Virus record (IMG/VR): IMGVR_UViG_3300037346_000580
Location: 64,001-118,848 of that record
Reading direction: 5' to 3' (one strand)
Length of the DNA stretch: 54,848 bases
DNA from: a virus
Lineage: Duplodnaviria > Heunggongvirae > Uroviricota > Caudoviricetes
The notes below the pieces were generated by a model. The model did not search any database, was not told where the DNA came from, and worked only from the letters and a program-made list of their open reading frames with translations. Of the stretch, positions 2,720-39,254 are shown one piece after another. The number at the start of each line of letters is the position of its first letter. Positions within the stretch are counted from its first letter, which is position 1. The position numbers were made by a program, and so were the translations under genes.

Positions 2720-3037
2720 TTATTCTTCTATTTCTTCCGCTACCGAGTTTCTGACAGCCGTTAAGTTTTCTAAAAATTCATCAATCTCAAAATCCATAAG
2801 GATTATATTAGCCTCCATGTCTCTTGCAAATTGGTGGATGAACTCAGCTGTGTTGGCTGTATATTCACCATAATCCCCGCCGGAGTAGAATTCTTCAAAT
2901 TCCACTCTTAGCTTCTCTGGTATTGAATGTTTACTTAGAAATGAGCTTCCAGAGATAAGATAAAATTCCTTAACCCCTTTCTCATGTAGGATCTTCGATA
3001 AGTCAGTCATGCTGTCTCTAAAATCGCTTACTGTCAT
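2720..3037 (-). CDS. acidic hypothetical protein
   Basis: ATG 3037 overlaps TGA of the upstream small ORF; track start at 3070 is probably too long. Confidence 0.65.
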   Translation of the reverse strand: MTVSDFRDSMTDLSKILHEKGVKEFYLISGSSFLSKHSIPEKLRVEFEEFYSGGDYGEYTANTAEFIHQFARDMEANIILMDFEIDEFLENLTAVRNSVAEEIEE

Positions 3038-3198
3038 AATATAGTTTTTCCGTTTATGTTTAGTGACCATCCATTATCAAAACACCAATCATTAATTTGC
3101 TCATCGTCAGCATTACTAAAGAAACAATCTTTAAATTGCCCTCTCGTACCTTCAAACATTTCACCATTTTCAACCAATATAATGTCAGAATCCTCCAT
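3034..3198 (-). CDS. small hypothetical protein (54 aa, not in track)
   Basis: MEDSDIILVENGEMFEGTRGQFKDCFFSNADDEQINDWCFDNGWSLNINGKTIL; directly follows promoter, ATGA-coupled to next gene. Confidence 0.65.
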   Translation of the reverse strand: MEDSDIILVENGEMFEGTRGQFKDCFFSNADDEQINDWCFDNGWSLNINGKTIL

Positions 3199-3215
3199 AC
3201 TTTATTTTTATAATG

Positions 3216-3246
3216 CAAATATAAAACAATCTTGCGGATAAAAAAA
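3216..3246 (-). promoter_or_regulatory. early-type promoter CCG-N11-TATATTTG
   Basis: TATATTTG at 3223-3216, CCG at 3237-3235. Confidence 0.7.
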
Positions 3247-3304
3247 AATATAGATATATAATTCATGGATAAAAAAAAATATAGATATATAATTCATGGA
3301 TAAA
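3236..3304 (+). repeat. 31-nt tandem duplication containing GATATATAAT and a start codon
   Basis: ggataaaaaaaaatatagatatataattcat at 3236-3266 and 3267-3297, then partial ggataaa. Confidence 0.9.
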
Positions 3305-4033
3305 TTAAAAAGACTTTATAACTACATTAAGAAAGACAAGAAAAAGAAAATTCTTTTTTTAACCACTTCGAATAGATGGGAGGGGGAAAAAGAATTACCC
3401 AAATCATCCATCATTGCTGCTGAGCTTAAAAAGAAATTGAAAAATGCAGAAATAATTGACGTTAGTAAACTTAAGATCTTTCCTTGTGAAGGTAATGTCT
3501 CCGGAAAGGATGGCAACAATTGTGGGGTCAAAGATGCAATGCTAAAAAGTAATAATCCCGAAAAATTTATAAGATGCTGGGCCTCAATAAATAATAAAAG
3601 TGATGAAATGCACAAGGTTGCAAATGCTATTTATGATGCTGATATTATCATATTCTTTGGATCCATTAGGTGGGGAAAAATGAATGCTATTTATTCCCAA
3701 ATAATAGAGAGATTAACTTGGCTTGAAAATAGACACACCACCCTGGGTGAATCTAATCTTATTAAAGACAAGGAATGTGGTGTTGTTGCAATCGGGCATA
3801 ATTGGAACGGCGAGCAGGCTATTAAAACAGAAAGGGAAGTTCTTGGGTTTTTCGGTTTTAAAACACCGAGTCAATTATCATTTAATTGGCAATACACTAA
3901 AGACACGAACGATGAAACCCAGAGAGGTTACAAAGACGATTATAGTAAATTCATCAAGGATTTTAACTTCAAAGAAACACTAAACGAATCCATTATAAGA
4001 TTCGGTGAATTTATAAAAAATATAACATCATGA
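3296..4033 (+). CDS. flavodoxin-like NAD(P)H-dependent FMN reductase / iron-sulfur flavoprotein-like
   Basis: ILFLTTSNR, PCEG..CG..CWAS cysteine cluster, YDADIIIFFGSIRWG, IERL. Confidence 0.7.
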   Translation: MDKLKRLYNYIKKDKKKKILFLTTSNRWEGEKELPKSSIIAAELKKKLKNAEIIDVSKLKIFPCEGNVSGKDGNNCGVKDAMLKSNNPEKFIRCWASINNKSDEMHKVANAIYDADIIIFFGSIRWGKMNAIYSQIIERLTWLENRHTTLGESNLIKDKECGVVAIGHNWNGEQAIKTEREVLGFFGFKTPSQLSFNWQYTKDTNDETQRGYKDDYSKFIKDFNFKETLNESIIRFGEFIKNITS

Positions 4034-4608
4034 AATATCCAAAGAAATATTTAAAAACTAATCCCAACATAATGAAGAGGGAAATTAAAAAACATAAAGA
4101 CAAAGCTGACGATGATGCTTCTGCATATGGTCCATGGGATGCCGATTATAAAAGCAGAAAGACAGGTAAGGGTAAACCTGTGCCCACTAAGACATCTAAA
4201 TATACAAAAAAATTCAAGGAACTCTACGGTGAATCTGAGGAATCTATAAATAAAGAAGCAATCATGGAAAATTTGATAAAATATGACCAGTTTGGATTAG
4301 AAATAGAAAAAGTAGCTTATGATGTTTTTATAGAATGTGCAGATTTAATAGACGAATCGGGGGGATCTTCAATAGAAACAGCATTAAAAAATAAAGCCAA
4401 AAAATCAGGATTCCCATTAGGAATATTGAGGCAAGTTTATAATCGCGGAAAAGCAGCTTGGAAAAATGGGCACATACCAGGGACAAATCCAGAACAGTGG
4501 GGATTAGCCCGTGTTAATTCATTCGTAACTGGAGGTAGAACAACAAAAGTGGGTGACGGTGCTTTATATGCACAGGGTAAGAAAGCAAAAAGTGAAAGAA
4601 AAAAATAA
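4030..4608 (+). CDS. conserved viral protein (DUF5824-like, recalled, unverified)
   Basis: KAKKSGFPLGILRQVYNRGKAAW..GH.PG...QW..ARVNSF..GG.T pattern. Confidence 0.55.
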   Translation: MKYPKKYLKTNPNIMKREIKKHKDKADDDASAYGPWDADYKSRKTGKGKPVPTKTSKYTKKFKELYGESEESINKEAIMENLIKYDQFGLEIEKVAYDVFIECADLIDESGGSSIETALKNKAKKSGFPLGILRQVYNRGKAAWKNGHIPGTNPEQWGLARVNSFVTGGRTTKVGDGALYAQGKKAKSERKK

Positions 4609-4613
4609 TCAAA

Positions 4614-5183
4614 ATAAAACACTTATCAGATTTTAATGAATTTAATGGCATCAACGAGGGAATAATGTCAAAATCCCTGATTGCAGGACTTCTTATGGGA
4701 ATAGGTAATCTGTCAGCACAGGAGAAAGACAACTTTATAAGAAAAGCTGATTCTATAAATTCAACTTCGATGACAGCAGCCAAAAAAAGTGCAGCTATAA
4801 GCATTATAAAACCAAACGTTATTCAAAAAATAAAAGCAGCTGCAAGAAAAGCGGAGACGGAGATAAGAAATAGAACCGATCTTGATGCAGCTCAAAAGAA
4901 TAGTGAAATTTCAAAAATAAAAGTTCAAGAAAGGGAAGACATTAAAACTGTTAATGGTAAATGGGGAGATGCAGAAAGGTCAGCAATAAAGGTAAGAGTT
5001 GATGCATGGATAGCAGCAAACCCAGGAAAAACTGAAAAAGACTATTGGAAAGAGCAGGAAAGACTTGCTAAAGCTGACGACGTTCCATTGGATGGTTTAC
5101 AGGGACCAGATTTTAAACCTACCAGTTGTGGTATATCTAAAGCAGCTAGTAAGGAATCAAAAAAGGATTGGAAGAATAAATAA
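4614..5183 (+). CDS. hypothetical protein with CTS-like N-terminus
   Basis: frame of track ORF 4665..5183 is open upstream to ATA 4614: IKHLSDFNEFNGINEG-IMSK; start may be ATA or a mutated ATG. Confidence 0.6.
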   Translation: MKHLSDFNEFNGINEGIMSKSLIAGLLMGIGNLSAQEKDNFIRKADSINSTSMTAAKKSAAISIIKPNVIQKIKAAARKAETEIRNRTDLDAAQKNSEISKIKVQEREDIKTVNGKWGDAERSAIKVRVDAWIAANPGKTEKDYWKEQERLAKADDVPLDGLQGPDFKPTSCGISKAASKESKKDWKNK

Positions 5184-5190
5184 TTAAATC

Positions 5191-5796
5191 ATGATAAATT
5201 ATAAGAATTTTATAAATGAAGCATCATTGAGTACCATTGGTCTAGAAGATGTGATAAATAAAAAATTTATAAGTATAGTATTATCTGATAGTTACAATAG
5301 AGAATCCTTGATCTACCAATATATGGGAGAGGAAAGTATTTCAGATGAGAATGAAATTGACGACGCTGAATTCAACAATTGGGTCAAATACGAATTGGAC
5401 TATCTAGCATCAGAATTTATCACCAAGGTTAACAAGGATCTTATAAAAAATGGAAAGATTAAAATTTGGAGGGCAATGTCAGTAAATAAAGAATGGGAAT
5501 CCAGATTACAGACAGAAGCAAAACACCTCGGAATATATTGGTCATGGGATCAGGAAGGTGCAGAACCTCACTGGGGGTACAATACGGAACTGCCATTTAC
5601 TACCATAATGGAAGCGGAAGTAGACGAAACCTCTGTCGACTGGTATCCAACAATAAGACTAAATACTGAACCGATTTCCTTTGAGGAGAAGGAAATAAGA
5701 TTGGTAAAAGGTGCCAAAATTAAAATCATATCCATAAAAATCAATGAAAATGAAATAGATCTTTCTGATATATCTGGGGATAGATTTATAGCATAG
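5191..5796 (+). CDS. putative ADP-ribosyltransferase-like protein with CTS-like N-terminus
   Basis: MINYKNFINE tag; R-S-E-like motifs IKIWRAM, GIYWSWD, EEKEIRL. Confidence 0.45.
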   Translation: MINYKNFINEASLSTIGLEDVINKKFISIVLSDSYNRESLIYQYMGEESISDENEIDDAEFNNWVKYELDYLASEFITKVNKDLIKNGKIKIWRAMSVNKEWESRLQTEAKHLGIYWSWDQEGAEPHWGYNTELPFTTIMEAEVDETSVDWYPTIRLNTEPISFEEKEIRLVKGAKIKIISIKINENEIDLSDISGDRFIA

Positions 5797-34833: not shown

Positions 34834-35008
34834 TATTTAATTGTTTTTTATATATTTCTAATTGTAAGCTATCTCTTTGGAATCTTATATGTTCCCTATG
34901 CGATTTTAGATCCGAACTTTTTTTCAATTCATGACCAAAAGTAAACAGGCCAAGTATAAATAGGGAGGCTATCGCAAATAAGCCGATTGTTTTTAAATTT
35001 CTATTCAT
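34808..35008 (-). CDS. small membrane protein
   Basis: N-terminal hydrophobic helix. Confidence 0.6.
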   Translation of the reverse strand: MNRNLKTIGLFAIASLFILGLFTFGHELKKSSDLKSHREHIRFQRDSLQLEIYKKQLNNESNNSSK

Positions 35009-35014
35009 AACTAC

Positions 35015-35773
35015 CTATTTGAAAACTCTGTCTCTTTCCATTCTCCTTAAACATTCTAATGCGGTCTCTCCCGCTCTGAATTCATAGCTACATCCCGTGC
35101 ATCCACCTTTCCAACTACCACTTCTTTCCCCAACCTCACCACTAAACTCTATCTCCAAATAATGATGGCATTTTACATGCAACCCAAACCACCTTCTCCA
35201 ATATCTTTTCTCCTGATATACCGTTGCTATTCTTTCCTGGATTTCCCCGAATTTTAGTGTGTATGTGTATGGATATTCATCTAAAACCATTTCATTTTTC
35301 CATTTTTCTTTATCCCAAAAATCATCTCCTCTTTCCTCTTTCCTCCATCCCGATTTATGAAGGACCTCTCTTTTTAGAAATTTATATCCCCACGGAAAAT
35401 CGAAACTCAATTTAGAAAATCCTCTAACCAAAAATTGATTAGGAAATCCGCTATCCGCATGGTAGAACATAAGGCCATAGGTCTTAGATTCTGCAGTATT
35501 ATTTCTTCCAGTATCATATGGCAGATGCATATATAAGCTTCCCCAGCTATAAAAGCATAGAAATAGAGATACTGGGATTAACCATAAGCTTATGAATGGA
35601 AGGATCAGAGCTGCAAGTGTCGTTAGATTTGTGTTTATCTGCGGTCTTGGGTCAAAGTAACCATTATTTTCATAAGTTAAAGAGAATCCAGTTCCTTTGT
35701 CTCTATTCGGATAAAAGCTTATCCATTTTTTGTAATCCTCAGTTTCTGCGTAGGTGAAGTTAAATTTTATCAT
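35015..35773 (-). CDS. hypothetical protein
   Basis: 252-aa ORF. Confidence 0.75.
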   Translation of the reverse strand: MIKFNFTYAETEDYKKWISFYPNRDKGTGFSLTYENNGYFDPRPQINTNLTTLAALILPFISLWLIPVSLFLCFYSWGSLYMHLPYDTGRNNTAESKTYGLMFYHADSGFPNQFLVRGFSKLSFDFPWGYKFLKREVLHKSGWRKEERGDDFWDKEKWKNEMVLDEYPYTYTLKFGEIQERIATVYQEKRYWRRWFGLHVKCHHYLEIEFSGEVGERSGSWKGGCTGCSYEFRAGETALECLRRMERDRVFK

Positions 35774-35788
35774 TTTTAATTTTTTATA

Positions 35789-37033
35789 TTAATTAGAGAG
35801 TGGAGCTTTAATTGTTGGATGTGATTGGTAATCCTCCATTTCAAAATCACATGGTAGTAATCTTTGGATTAATTCATCAATTGTATTATATGGAATCTCA
35901 TCTAATGCTGGACAATCAAATGTTGGTAAAGGATAAGGTTCACGTGTTCTCTTTGGCGTAGGCTCATAATATTCATCATCGTAGTTAGGTAAATTATTAG
36001 GATTAAAATTCCTCTCCATGCCGGTCTCATAGTTAAGACGAAACCATTCATTATATCTTTCTTCTCCGGTTAATTCTCTACCAATTTGTTCTTTTGCCTG
36101 CTCGATATGATTAGAATATAAGTGGGTATCTCCTAAATTTCCAATTAGTTCATCAGGAACCATATTAACTACTTTAGCAATGATTTCTAATAATAAACCA
36201 TAAGAGGCTATATTGAATGGTAAACCTAAAAATGTATCTACAGAGCGTTGATTCCACATTAAAGATATTGCTCGTGTTGGAATTTCGCAATCATTCATTA
36301 GTTTAGCGTTAAACCCTTTGATATATTTCTTATCCTCTATCTTAAATCTTTCAGTTGATTGAAATATGTTACATCTTTCTTCGTAACTCAACTCCCTAGT
36401 ATAAACTTGAAATCCGTAATGACATGGGGGAAGTACTTGATTCTGGAGATCCGATGGATTCCACGTCGTTACCATTAATCGTCTACTGTCGGGGTTTGTT
36501 TTTATGTCGTTTATTAAGTTTGCGATTTGGTCTATACCTTTTTCATAGACTCCAGGATTGGTTATTTTTTCTTCTCGAGTTGTTTTAGTTAAACCGAAAT
36601 TTCGCCATTGTGCACCATAAATTTTCCCTAATTCTCCAAATTTATTACTAAATTCTTCATCATTTTTTATTTTATCAATAAACTCTGTCTGTGATAAGCA
36701 CCCATCGGTATACGGCCCAGAAAATGGCGGATTTTCCTTTAACCAATTACCTTTATATGCCTGATAACAATCGCCATTCCAGATATTACATCCATTATCA
36801 ACCAAGTATTTGATATTAGTATCACCACGGAGGAACCATAGTAACTCAGTTACGATTCCCTTAAAATAGAGACGTTTTGTAGTCAATAGCGGGAATTTAC
36901 CATCATTAAATTTATATCTAATAGTTCTACCAAATACACTTAATGTTTTCCCGTTACGGGTTTCTTTTTCAACTCCGTTCTCTAATATATCCTTCAATAA
37001 TTCAATATACTGTTCGTCTAGACCATTTTTCAT
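35789..37033 (-). CDS. thyA: thymidylate synthase with large insertions
   Basis: FPLLTTK, ELLWFLRG, YGAQWR, SRRL, LPPCH, QRSVDTFLGLPFN, DTHLYSNH. Confidence 0.95.
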   Translation of the reverse strand: MKNGLDEQYIELLKDILENGVEKETRNGKTLSVFGRTIRYKFNDGKFPLLTTKRLYFKGIVTELLWFLRGDTNIKYLVDNGCNIWNGDCYQAYKGNWLKENPPFSGPYTDGCLSQTEFIDKIKNDEEFSNKFGELGKIYGAQWRNFGLTKTTREEKITNPGVYEKGIDQIANLINDIKTNPDSRRLMVTTWNPSDLQNQVLPPCHYGFQVYTRELSYEERCNIFQSTERFKIEDKKYIKGFNAKLMNDCEIPTRAISLMWNQRSVDTFLGLPFNIASYGLLLEIIAKVVNMVPDELIGNLGDTHLYSNHIEQAKEQIGRELTGEERYNEWFRLNYETGMERNFNPNNLPNYDDEYYEPTPKRTREPYPLPTFDCPALDEIPYNTIDELIQRLLPCDFEMEDYQSHPTIKAPLSN

Positions 37034-38055
37034 ATTATAATAAAATTAAAATTTATACCTGCATTTAAAATTGAATCTCTTTTTAATAGATTCTTTTTCT
37101 TTTCCTTATTGAATGTGTATGTTGACTTTACCTCAATAACCCTATTTTCTGATTTGATGTAAATGTCTGGATAATATCTATGTTCTTTATTTTCATATAT
37201 ATAGTGAAAAAATCCAATACAATCAATTATATTTTGAACTCCTACCACAATATCATGCTCATCATAATCAATAACTAATTTAGCTAATACTCTTGGTTCA
37301 TATCCTTGAACTCTAACGACCTTTCCTGACGGAAATTCAAAATCATAATACGAATATCCACCTGATTGTTGTTTTGCATTTATATAATCCACTTTCGAAA
37401 CCCATTCTTTACCATGTTTCTTAATAGCAGTTTCGACACACATATCATACCATTCTGATGTTTTGGAAAAATATTCAACATTGTATTTTTCTATATTGGT
37501 ATTTTTCATTTTAGTAAATAATTCTGGTGATGCCATTCCAACTCCTCCATATTTTTCAATACATGTATTATTCCTTCTATCCGAAACATCTTTATTTCTC
37601 ATAGCATAATCACCCCAATTATTAATATGTGATTGTTTATTTTTCTCAATAACACATGGTAACTTAGATGCTATATCAACGCCGTATTTTTCTAGATTAG
37701 TACTTCTTCTTCTATCTTGTATTTCAGTAACTTCATATATACTTTTATTAATCCATTTTTGTTTCATTTTATTAGTAACAGATTCATTATTATTACTACA
37801 TTTACTAGAACAATATTCATTATAAACATTTATTAAAATATTTTTATTACATGTTCTACACAATTTAGGTGTGTTTATATAACCTTCTTTGATATAATTA
37901 AATCTAAATCTAAGATGTGTATCTTCTGGTAAAAAACTAGTAGTTTCTAATAAAGTATCTAAATATATTTTATTATGTGAGATTTTTATTTTTTTAGTGT
38001 TAATTCCGCCTTTTTTATTTGTAAAATCTTTTAGAAGTTTATCTATAATATCCAT
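37030..38055 (-). mobile_element. free-standing putative homing endonuclease (Zn finger, EKYGV repeats, PD-(D/E)xK nuclease)
   Basis: CRTC..YCSSKC, repeated T.IEKYG/NV, QGYEP, YYPDIYIKSENRVIEVKS; visibly more AT-rich than flanks. Confidence 0.75.
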
Positions 38056-38058
38056 AAT

Positions 38059-38133
38059 GGGTTTCCTTTATTATATATATCTACTAATATTGGAAAACCA
38101 TCAAAAATGTTAAAATTTTTAACAAGGAAACCC
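38059..38133 (-). promoter_or_regulatory. RBS-sequestering long-range hairpin with internal late-type promoter
   Basis: minus-strand GGGTTTCCTT (38133-38124) is complementary to AAGGAAACCC (38068-38059); GATATATATAA at 38081-38071. Confidence 0.7.
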
Positions 38134-38265
38134 CGTTTTCATATCGTGTCTTATAGTTCTACTGAAAACACTTATAGTTCCGGTTCCAGTTCTATCTGAT
38201 TTTGTTACACCGTTATCTAAAATGTCCTGTAGGAGTGTTTGATATTGTTTATCTAGATTGTTCAT
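38119..38265 (-). pseudogene. thyA: orphan thymidylate synthase N-terminal fragment (48 aa)
   Basis: [48 protein letters not shown], matches a ThyA N-terminus up to the FP of FPLLTTK. Confidence 0.9.
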
Positions 38266-38494
38266 TATATTTTTTTATAAACCATTTAATTTTCGTTATT
38301 CTATAAAGATAATACAGGATTATCTTATTTTTGTTTATTGTCCAGACTCTTCTAGTACCATTTTTATCCGAAAGTATCATATATGGGGTGGTTACTAAAA
38401 CATAGGGAGCCCTGATTATTCCAGTTTTAGCCTCAACTGTCTTAGTTTCCACCTTTAGGTTAAGTTCTGGTATTTTATTCTCAATATTATTCAT
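38249..38494 (-). CDS. hypothetical protein
   Basis: likely start ATG 38494. Confidence 0.6.
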
Positions 38495-38684
38495 ATCTTC
38501 TAAATATAACAACAGCATTAACCAATCTCATAGGTCCTGCATTATTACTAAATATAGTTGGTTCTATTAAATATACGTCCCATCCATCCTCCGCTTCAGA
38601 TCTCAAATAATCAGCGAAAGACTCCGGATCAATGTCATTATACTGAGCTTGCCATGTAACTATTTTTTGCTTTCCTGTTGCCAT
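38487..38684 (-). CDS. hypothetical protein
   Basis: 65-aa coupled ORF. Confidence 0.65.
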   Translation of the reverse strand: MATGKQKIVTWQAQYNDIDPESFADYLRSEAEDGWDVYLIEPTIFSNNAGPMRLVNAVVIFRRYE

Positions 38685-38929
38685 TTTATCCCTGTTTTAA
38701 TTGGTATTAATATTGTTTCAAGAGTTGCTTCGAATGCAGAGGATCTGAATATATTATTTCTTGTCCTTGCCTCCTCAGCAGCTCCCTCGAATAATTCAAT
38801 TGCAGTATCATTGCCTCTATACGTGGAAATCATCTTACCAGCGGAGGGAACACTGATGGGCTTCTTTAGAAGCTGTTCCTCGCAAATTAAATCTATCATT
38901 TCATTTATTTTATTCTCGTATGTTTTCAT
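38660..38929 (-). CDS. hypothetical protein
   Basis: 89-aa ORF. Confidence 0.6.
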   Translation of the reverse strand: MKTYENKINEMIDLICEEQLLKKPISVPSAGKMISTYRGNDTAIELFEGAAEEARTRNNIFRSSAFEATLETILIPIKTGIKWQQESKK

Positions 38930-39254
38930 TCTTTAATTTTTTTAAATCCCCTTCAAGTCTGGTCATAAAGGATTCATCACAATCATCACCAGATAATAGC
39001 CAGTCAACTCTTTGCATATAGATCTGTGCTATCTCAATATGTTTAAGACCTTCCTTAAATTTCAATATCATCTCATCAGAATATCGGTAATGAAATCTAT
39101 CATCAGGATATTTTTCAAGCCAATCATCACTCGCATAGCTATATTTAAGCTCTTCTTCGGTCTTTTCCTTTCCGTTCTTATCAATAAGCTTTCTTATATC
39201 CTCCACAACATCAGTAAATCTATACTGAAGGTATTCCCAGTGACCCCCGCTCAT
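38910..39254 (-). CDS. hypothetical protein
   Basis: 114 aa, MSGGHWEY start. Confidence 0.7.
   Translation of the reverse strand: MSGGHWEYLQYRFTDVVEDIRKLIDKNGKEKTEEELKYSYASDDWLEKYPDDRFHYRYSDEMILKFKEGLKHIEIAQIYMQRVDWLLSGDDCDESFMTRLEGDLKKLKNENIRE

Follow-up and report, generated by a model that had tools for sequence, protein, structure and literature searches.

How can the gene of a homing endonuclease settle inside the coding region of an essential gene and leave that gene whole? A homing endonuclease within a gene is generally assumed to be tolerated only as part of an intron or an intein. This question is raised by a thyA locus in the 118.8-kb viral contig IMGVR_UViG_3300037346_000580 of the IMG/VR database, of which we analyzed positions 64,001 to 118,848, a stretch of 54,848 nt referred to as the window. 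Here, an orphan thyA 5' end (termed orphan head), a leader, an endonuclease open reading frame (ORF), and a complete thyA gene follow each other in this order from 5' to 3', all on the minus strand. We propose that positions 38124-36890 of the window are a splice-free homing element in thyA, composed of the leader, a DUF7487 endonuclease gene, and putatively cleavage-resistant thyA codons 1-48, and we assign a probability of roughly 85% to this reading. As judged from the related loci compared below, the element is a real, recurrent, and well-delimited mobile unit.

An initial annotation, made from the letters of the window, had described the parts of this locus, and we re-checked its ORF coordinates (Table 1). 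The 48-codon orphan ThyA N-terminus is located where it had been placed and is recognized by the thymidylate synthase profile. A spacer follows it as described, although its length is 63 nt and not the 64 nt given. Coordinates and Pfam matches also agree with a PD-(D/E)xK endonuclease gene followed by a complete thyA that starts on the endonuclease stop codon, and the two N-termini, which had been called clearly divergent, share 57% of their residues. In the translation of the complete thyA, the catalytic motifs are intact, including the catalytic Cys in LPPCHYGFQ (PPCH), the deoxyuridine monophosphate-binding Arg/Asn motifs, DSRRLMV, WNQRSVDTFLGLPFNIASY, and GDTHLYSNH. The endonuclease occurs as a single copy in the whole contig. 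The nearest named phages to the window are the Flavobacterium immuto phages; the C-terminal insertion in the thyA of the window is present in immuto and absent from locus L084.

Table 1. Coordinates of the features at the thyA locus, numbered within the window.
Feature	Positions	Strand	Description
Orphan thyA head	38265-38119	minus	48 codons (47 native codons and Cys), then stop; PF00303 (Thymidylat_synt) positions 1-43, E 5e-11
Spacer/leader	38118-38056	minus	63 nt
Endonuclease ORF	38055-37030	minus	341 aa; DUF7487 (PF24308), E 1.9e-51; free-standing, with its own start and stop
Complete thyA	37033-35789	minus	414 aa; PF00303, E 3e-85, 286 bits; ATG overlaps the endonuclease TGA (ATGA)
Putative element-borne replacement head	37033-36890	minus	thyA codons 1-48 (M1 to P48); divergent YKF(N/K)DGKFP with one extra Lys codon
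Resident thyA body	36889-35789	minus	codons 49-414; lineage-specific insertions in common with phage immuto; predicted right homology arm

The arrangement is not confined to the window. We examined 31 loci on publicly available contigs of phages and metagenomes, representing 17 endonuclease variants (groups at 97% nucleotide identity or more) with 65-80% amino-acid identity to the enzyme of the window; the public data hold about 75 endonuclease protein clusters at 63-80% identity. Every one of the 31 loci has an ATGA overlap between endonuclease stop and thyA start, and in each the second head is complete, conserved, and in frame. A full-length orphan head, ending about 70 nt before the endonuclease ATG, is found in 10 of the 17 variants. 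In the other seven, the orphan is frameshifted (the L085 group), truncated (L102, L103, L106, and the L084 group, with seven codons), or absent (L092 and L175), and thyA is intact in every one of them. In L212 and L236, the endonuclease itself is cut down to its last 60-73 codons, and a cassette-type head still follows. The 31 filled loci and about 80 empty thyA genes make up a presence/absence polymorphism at a fixed site, thyA codon 48-50. The recurrence of the three-part arrangement in 31 independent loci is far beyond chance, and the series of intact, decaying, and lost states is the pattern predicted by a homing cycle.

The same loci allow us to judge whether the 1.2-kb insert could be removed at the RNA or translation level, as a group I or group II intron or by ribosomal bypassing, in which case the orphan would be the true N-terminus and the second head redundant. 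The thyA gene is a classic host of group I introns, such as that of T4 td, and the insert is located exactly between codons that would join in frame. However, no Rfam family matched positions 35000-39000 on either strand at E-values up to 1, and the last base of the insert varies (CCG, CCA, CCT, or CCC). The intact thyA of the seven variants with defective or missing orphans, together with an in-frame start of the second head in all loci, makes such a removal extremely unlikely. An intein is not indicated either, as the Pfam search of the endonuclease returned no Hint family.

If the second head came with a mobile element, it should differ in origin from the orphan. The initial annotation had called for a comparison of relatives with and without the endonuclease, and we collected about 80 endonuclease-less thyA loci from viral contigs, phage immuto included. 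These loci contain one uninterrupted thyA with a head of the orphan type and no orphan fragment; the outcome that had been named as a refutation, the same downstream N-terminus and orphan fragment in relatives lacking the endonuclease, did not occur. The immuto thyA is of the same unusual long type, uninterrupted, and without endonuclease, and blastn links it to the orphan head of the window and not to the current head. The orphan head is 77-83% identical in amino acids to the heads of the endonuclease-less relatives, compared with 57-66% for the current head, except for L017 with 75%. Near-copies of the current head (84-94% amino-acid identity) were found only in contigs that carry the endonuclease as well. 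A comparison of the filled locus L098 with the empty locus L009 gave a similar picture at the nucleotide level, with identities to the native head of 81.6% for the orphan and 68.9% for the current head; the next 186 nt of the two bodies are 86.6% identical. By these identities, the orphan is shown to be the displaced 5' end of the resident gene, hence of native origin, and the current head to be of foreign origin.

If the resident thyA head had been duplicated in tandem on the spot and an endonuclease gene had landed later between the copies, the insert would also be flanked by two copies of one gene segment, without any foreign head. The low identity of the two copies in protein (57%) speaks against such an origin, and heads in unrelated contigs match the downstream copy at 88-92% identity, whereas the upstream copy groups with native heads. 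We therefore consider a duplication hardly credible. The head of the endonuclease-less thyA in L017 (L017:5998-7231), 75% identical to the cassette head, contains TRNGG and a GNNFP loop that is one residue longer. L017 may stand for the lineage from which the resistant head was donated, or it may be an allele that persists once the endonuclease has been lost entirely.

The extent of the unit is best seen in L095 and L174, which share about 96% identity over a tract that begins at the orphan/leader junction, spans leader, endonuclease, and head, and ends at thyA codon 48. Beyond codon 48, the identity drops to 0.6 and then to 0.4, and upstream the orphans are 0.5-0.64 identical, with 0.82 over the last 45 nt, consistent with co-conversion of the flank. 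The sharp bounds of this tract define the unit as leader, endonuclease, and codons 1-48. Moreover, the junctions that had been guessed at 38125 and 36890 coincide with the sharp edges of the tract in these two otherwise different contigs. When ThyA proteins were aligned, 11 of them from cassette-bearing and 61 from endonuclease-less genes, carriers were more alike than carrier/non-carrier pairs by 0.21-0.26 at residues 1-51, with no excess from residue 52 onward. On the other side, the homology of the window DNA to other cassettes starts at about 38116, and that to L084 just after the orphan stop. Orphans typically end in FPLL(K/T/N)-stop, which places the join at or just after the LL codons; the orphan of the window has a small indel near its end compared with the other orphans, which end in FPLLK-stop. 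Taken together, the alignments show the predicted mobile unit to run from the leader through the endonuclease to codon 48 of thyA, with its insertion point at GFP(LL)/TTK, where the bar stands between LL and TTK. In window coordinates, this corresponds to about 38124-36890 on the minus strand, approximately 1.23 kb.

Could the endonuclease instead form a unit with the whole of thyA, or with a long part of variable extent, and not with a head delimited at 48 codons? The endonuclease identity is weakly correlated with the body identity (Spearman 0.42, as opposed to 0.65 with the head identity), and the blastn tracts that the window shares with L085 or L094 extend to about codon 90. This extension, however, falls in a stretch conserved in all thyA genes, and both the loss of the carrier excess from residue 52 and the drop at codon 48 between L095 and L174 contradict a longer unit. 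The bodies also vary among carriers in their insertions and in length (377-414 aa, one of 591 aa), and for eight of the 11 cassette-bearing genes, that of the window among them, the nearest body belongs to an endonuclease-less gene. A larger unit is thus highly improbable.

Next, we consider the junction as a target site. At this position, the consensus of the native genes is CAy AAn ATG nnn GAn GGn TTT CCn yTn CTt ACn ACn AAg AAa ATG (HKMSEGFPLLTTKKM), whereas that of the carrier genes is TAy AAa TTT AAA GAT GGt AAA TTT CCa... (YKFKDGKFPLLTTKKM), one codon longer. In protein, the carriers have YKFKDGKFP, including the extra AAA codon, where the native genes have HKMSEGFP. In a carrier, leader DNA comes after the left half of the native site, and the altered head comes before the right half. 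Both half-sites have changed neighbours, so that neither junction rebuilds the target. From this comparison of junctions, the altered carried head probably gives immunity to cleavage.

These features can be combined into a homing cycle. In a mixed infection, the enzyme would cut a naive thyA near codons 45-52, at the consensus GAnGGnTTTCCnyTnCTtACnAC encoding (D/E)GFPLLTT. The initial annotation had likewise placed the presumed cut within the FP/LLTTK codons; homing endonucleases are able to cut away from their insertion sites. The broken ends could then pair with the orphan head of the donor on the left and with the donor thyA from codon 49 on the right, such that the orphan head and the gene body would serve as the homology arms of the element. 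Repair would copy all the DNA between the two arms, and the head of the recipient would be displaced upstream, becoming a new orphan. The gene would be kept whole by the new head that the element supplies, translated by coupling to the endonuclease ORF. The resulting junctions, with the leader after the orphan and YKFKDGKFP in the new head, would not restore the target. Some heads are mosaics. The current heads of L175 (L175:1410-1560) and L107 (L107:4993-5150) are native-like (DRTGTGT...GRQIR) up to (K)FKDGKFP but retain KDGKFP itself, and the orphan of L095 (L095:1683-1829) has TRNGEVLSVFGR in common with its own current head. The mosaics in L095, L175, and L107 suggest gene conversion between orphan and new head or template switching during homing.

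A mobile head should have a history of its own, and separate phylogenies of the thyA head and the rest, as had been advised, were indeed discordant. The head tree was built from 47 columns with 11 cassette heads, ten orphans, and native heads. The 11 cassette heads form one clade with 94/96 support, nine of them at 100/99. The ten orphans, in contrast, are scattered among the native heads, requiring nine changes, with no more clustering than under shuffled labels. The orphan of the window pairs with the native head of L057 at 100/87 support, and a clade uniting orphans and cassette heads was rejected by the approximately unbiased (AU) test (p 0.009). In the body tree, built from the columns from residue 95 onward with a careful search, the cassette label needs six changes, at least five of them forced by strongly supported branches, and a single clade of cassette-bearing bodies was rejected (AU p 0.003). 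One head clade on polyphyletic bodies implies entry of the unit into several thyA lineages. The trees thus show that the putative unit entered at least five lineages, with some vertical inheritance besides.

Several observations weigh against a homing element. The cassette-bearing bodies are more clustered than random labels, with six changes compared with a shuffled mean of 10.4, which means that part of the distribution is due to vertical inheritance. A body tree from a quick search did not reject their monophyly (p 0.84); we set this tree aside because its free search scored worse than the constrained tree, and the careful tree reversed the outcome. Both observations would fit a single ancient insertion in one ancestral phage followed by vertical descent, which would make the orphan a passive relic and the unit immobile. 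Such a history is very unlikely in view of the rejected body clade and its forced changes, the confinement of the 96% tract in L095 and L174 to the unit with flanks at 40-65%, and the scattered orphans that resemble local native heads. Besides, most orphans are still open frames even though the endonuclease has diverged to 65-80%. As a further difficulty for the homing element, we found no close endonuclease-less relative of the phage of the window, and the best match to its thyA body is only about 54-67% identical in amino acids, so that the before/after comparison for the window locus is indirect. Finally, the endonuclease is present in L102 next to a native-like GFP, and the changes lie on the opposite side instead (FPAIT), which means that resistance could also be reached by a route other than the extra Lys codon.

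With these points considered, a homing element remains the reading that we favor. The initial annotation had proposed an intron-less invasion by an element carrying its own 5' piece of thyA (the name 'intron-less homing' reportedly comes from Belle et al. in 2002), and the recurrence, the empty sites, the boundaries, the discordant trees, and the lack of any Rfam match all bear this out.

We also inspected how the genes of the element might be expressed. The leader carries GGTTTTCC (38099-38092), which is complementary to GGAAACCC (38066-38059) in the ribosome-binding region, and a TATAAT-like stretch is located in the loop of the stem. In an alignment of 18 leaders (alignment A2), the 8-bp stem is 89.6% paired and has compensatory changes at three pairs; its covariation score was reached by 14 of 500 shuffles, a modest support. 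In the minimum-energy fold of the window, it is the end of the orphan (38134-38124) that pairs with the ribosome-binding region (z -2.05). We infer from the conserved pairing that a hairpin over the ribosome-binding site would control translation of the endonuclease. It resembles the I-TevI-type control of endonuclease translation in T4, where a ribosome-binding-site hairpin combined with a late promoter is the paradigm for endonuclease control. A scan for sigma-70 promoters found sites no more numerous than in shuffled sequence, and a terminator scan found no terminator-like site between orphan, endonuclease, and thyA. The motif GATATWTATAA, with one occurrence in the window where 0.61 would be expected, is not supported as a recurrent phage promoter. 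The leader stretch GATGGTTTTCCAATATTA (38108-38092, minus strand; at the same position in the 17 other leaders of A2) resembles the native target GAnGGnTTTCCnyTnCTt. This stretch is the same arm that pairs with the ribosome-binding region of the endonuclease, and pairing and covariation with that region are a simpler explanation for it than the target mimic or operator that we first considered, although it may also be an operator for the enzyme. The start of native thyA genes overlaps an upstream ORF as well, as seen for immuto, L017, and the orphan of the window. The ATGA overlap would therefore recreate the native coupling, with the endonuclease as the partner, and translation of the thyA head is probably coupled to the endonuclease ORF.

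The endonuclease matches DUF7487 over profile positions 2-219 of 220 with 175.5 bits, compared with a gathering threshold of 27 bits. The Pfam search also returned a weak TnsA-like N-terminal nuclease match, and PHROG 3339, labelled 'homing endonuclease', matched with an E-value of 6e-13; PHROGs uses this label for related families. The protein consists of an N-terminal zinc knuckle, helical repeats, and a C-terminal PD-(D/E)xK domain. The Cys4 knuckle (C66, C69, C82, C86) and the nuclease residues E253, P296-D297, and E308-V-K310 are invariant in 27 homologues. In the AlphaFold model, with a mean predicted local distance difference test score of 82.6, residues 230-341 superimpose on TnsA (1t0f_A; Z 8.9, root-mean-square deviation 2.9, 105 aligned residues), Vsr (Z 7.0), and the homing endonuclease I-Bth0305I (Z 5.8). 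A Foldseek search against the PDB found no match at E <1e-3, and the weak matches were all PD-(D/E)xK nucleases; a PDB sequence search returned only a zinc-ribbon ribosomal protein at E 0.14. As modelled, the endonuclease is a member of the PD-(D/E)xK superfamily with a restriction-endonuclease-like alpha/beta core. This fold is under-represented among characterised homing enzymes. DUF7487, for which our literature search found zero papers, would thereby gain an assigned function in homing from sequence comparison.

Other insertions were seen around cassette-bearing thyA genes. In L084, a second endonuclease ORF (L084:7225-7881), GIY-YIG-looking by eye only, lies directly downstream, so that thyA is flanked by two selfish nuclease genes. 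The thyA body of L098 holds a 1.5-kb insert (L098:2388-3895), the 591-aa thyA ORF of L174 (L174:5020-6792) contains an insert of about 210 aa, and the cassette-bearing thyA ORFs in L107, L109, and L212 end early. These downstream interruptions in L098, L174, L107, L109, and L212 suggest further introns, inteins, or endonuclease insertions in thyA. The gene just downstream of thyA in the window (35015-35773, minus strand) matches Acb3 (PF25187, E 7.5e-34), an inhibitor of the cyclic oligonucleotide-based antiphage signaling system (CBASS). An Acb3 homologue is also found in L089, a few genes downstream of the cassette-bearing thyA.

Is thyA the only gene treated in this way? We checked the flanks of DUF7487 genes at 141 loci for duplicated gene ends. 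In L237 (L237:2867-5757), a distant DUF7487 endonuclease (4205-4972) separates a complete ATP-dependent DNA ligase (2867-4159) from a 117-aa orphan copy of its OB-domain tail (5404-5757). Over 93 aa, the two tails are 55% identical, and the locus has the design of the thyA element at a 3' end. In L142 (L142:707-2037), a 103-aa orphan head (707-1018) and a DUF7487 endonuclease (1065-1847) are followed by a new head 61% identical to the start of the orphan; it weakly matches an NAD-dependent ligase Ia domain, below the Pfam cut-off, and the contig ends after 46 codons. We lean, at somewhat better than even odds, toward the view that phages harbour a splice-free 'bring-your-own-exon' class, in which DUF7487 endonucleases colonise essential DNA-metabolism genes, carry a resistant copy of the displaced end (5' in thyA, 3' in the L237 ligase, and probably 5' in the ligase-like gene of L142), retain the native end as a homology arm, and entrench themselves via ATGA coupling.

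If this holds, homing endonucleases would have a third way of residing within phage genes, beside introns and inteins, and chimeric essential genes would be created continually. Replacement of the head would be a different route to tolerance in phages and would account for orphan gene fragments and chimeric core genes in their genomes. Gene calling and core-gene trees have to reckon with a history of thyA codons 1-48 unlike that of the remaining codons. With a compact 1.2-kb unit, many natural variants, and cultured endonuclease-less relatives among the Flavobacterium immuto phages, the element offers a system for studying target recognition, immunity, and co-conversion.

Homing that replaces a gene end is known from yeast and fungal mitochondria. 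We found no description of it in phages, and a literature search, whose incomplete coverage is not proof of absence, returned none of phage endonucleases with partial gene duplications. Among phage systems, the free-standing T4-type endonucleases SegF, SegG, and MobE are known for intron-less homing (reviewed in PMC2988022). As would be the case here, a free-standing phage endonuclease gene spreads there by cutting naive genomes and is copied with its flanks during repair. However, the Seg/Mob genes sit between genes without a duplicated gene piece and encode GIY-YIG or HNH nucleases, whereas the thyA element lies within a coding region, brings a replacement head, and encodes a PD-(D/E)xK enzyme. 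In Aeromonas phage Aeh1, nrdA is interrupted by mobE (Friedrich et al., 2007, cited in PMC8351571). As described in the citing article, this too is a free-standing endonuclease gene that has settled in an essential gene of nucleotide metabolism, here of a T4-like phage, and nrdA is still functional. In that account, nrdA is split into two reassembling polypeptides, with no segment duplicated or replaced; thyA, by contrast, stays in one piece through its carried head.

The mobile-ORF gene hybrids of fungal mitochondria, namely atp6 of Allomyces macrogynus and atp6, atp9, cox2, and nad3 of Glomus (Beaudet et al., 2013, PMC3630166), come closer. There too, an endonuclease ORF is found in a coding gene with a divergent foreign gene end, and the native end persists on the far side as a duplicate that resembles close relatives. 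In these organelle genes, the carried piece is C-terminal and precedes an ORF of the LAGLIDADG or GIY-YIG type, to which it is often fused in frame, whereas in the phage a 5' piece stands downstream of the ORF as a separate cistron. The closest likeness is to the WHO elements of Torulaspora and Lachancea yeasts, which home into FBA1 and for which cleavage was shown experimentally (Coughlan et al., 2020, eLife, PMC7282813). As in WHO, an endonuclease gene beside an essential gene travels with a copy of one gene end, resistant there and putatively so here; the displaced native end persists as a fragment, proposed to be a homology arm; the two gene parts have discordant trees; and splicing is unnecessary. 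WHO, unlike the thyA element, replaces the 3' end, and its enzymes are intein-derived, LAGLIDADG-type, nuclear, and meiotic. The thyA element replaces the 5' end, with a start that is probably translationally coupled, by means of a phage PD-(D/E)xK DUF7487 enzyme of predicted cleavage activity. The thyA element thus works like the WHO and mobile-ORF systems and, replacing the 5' end with a PD-(D/E)xK enzyme, is not a member of them by descent; this convergence would extend a WHO/HO-type mechanism from yeast to the viruses of bacteria.

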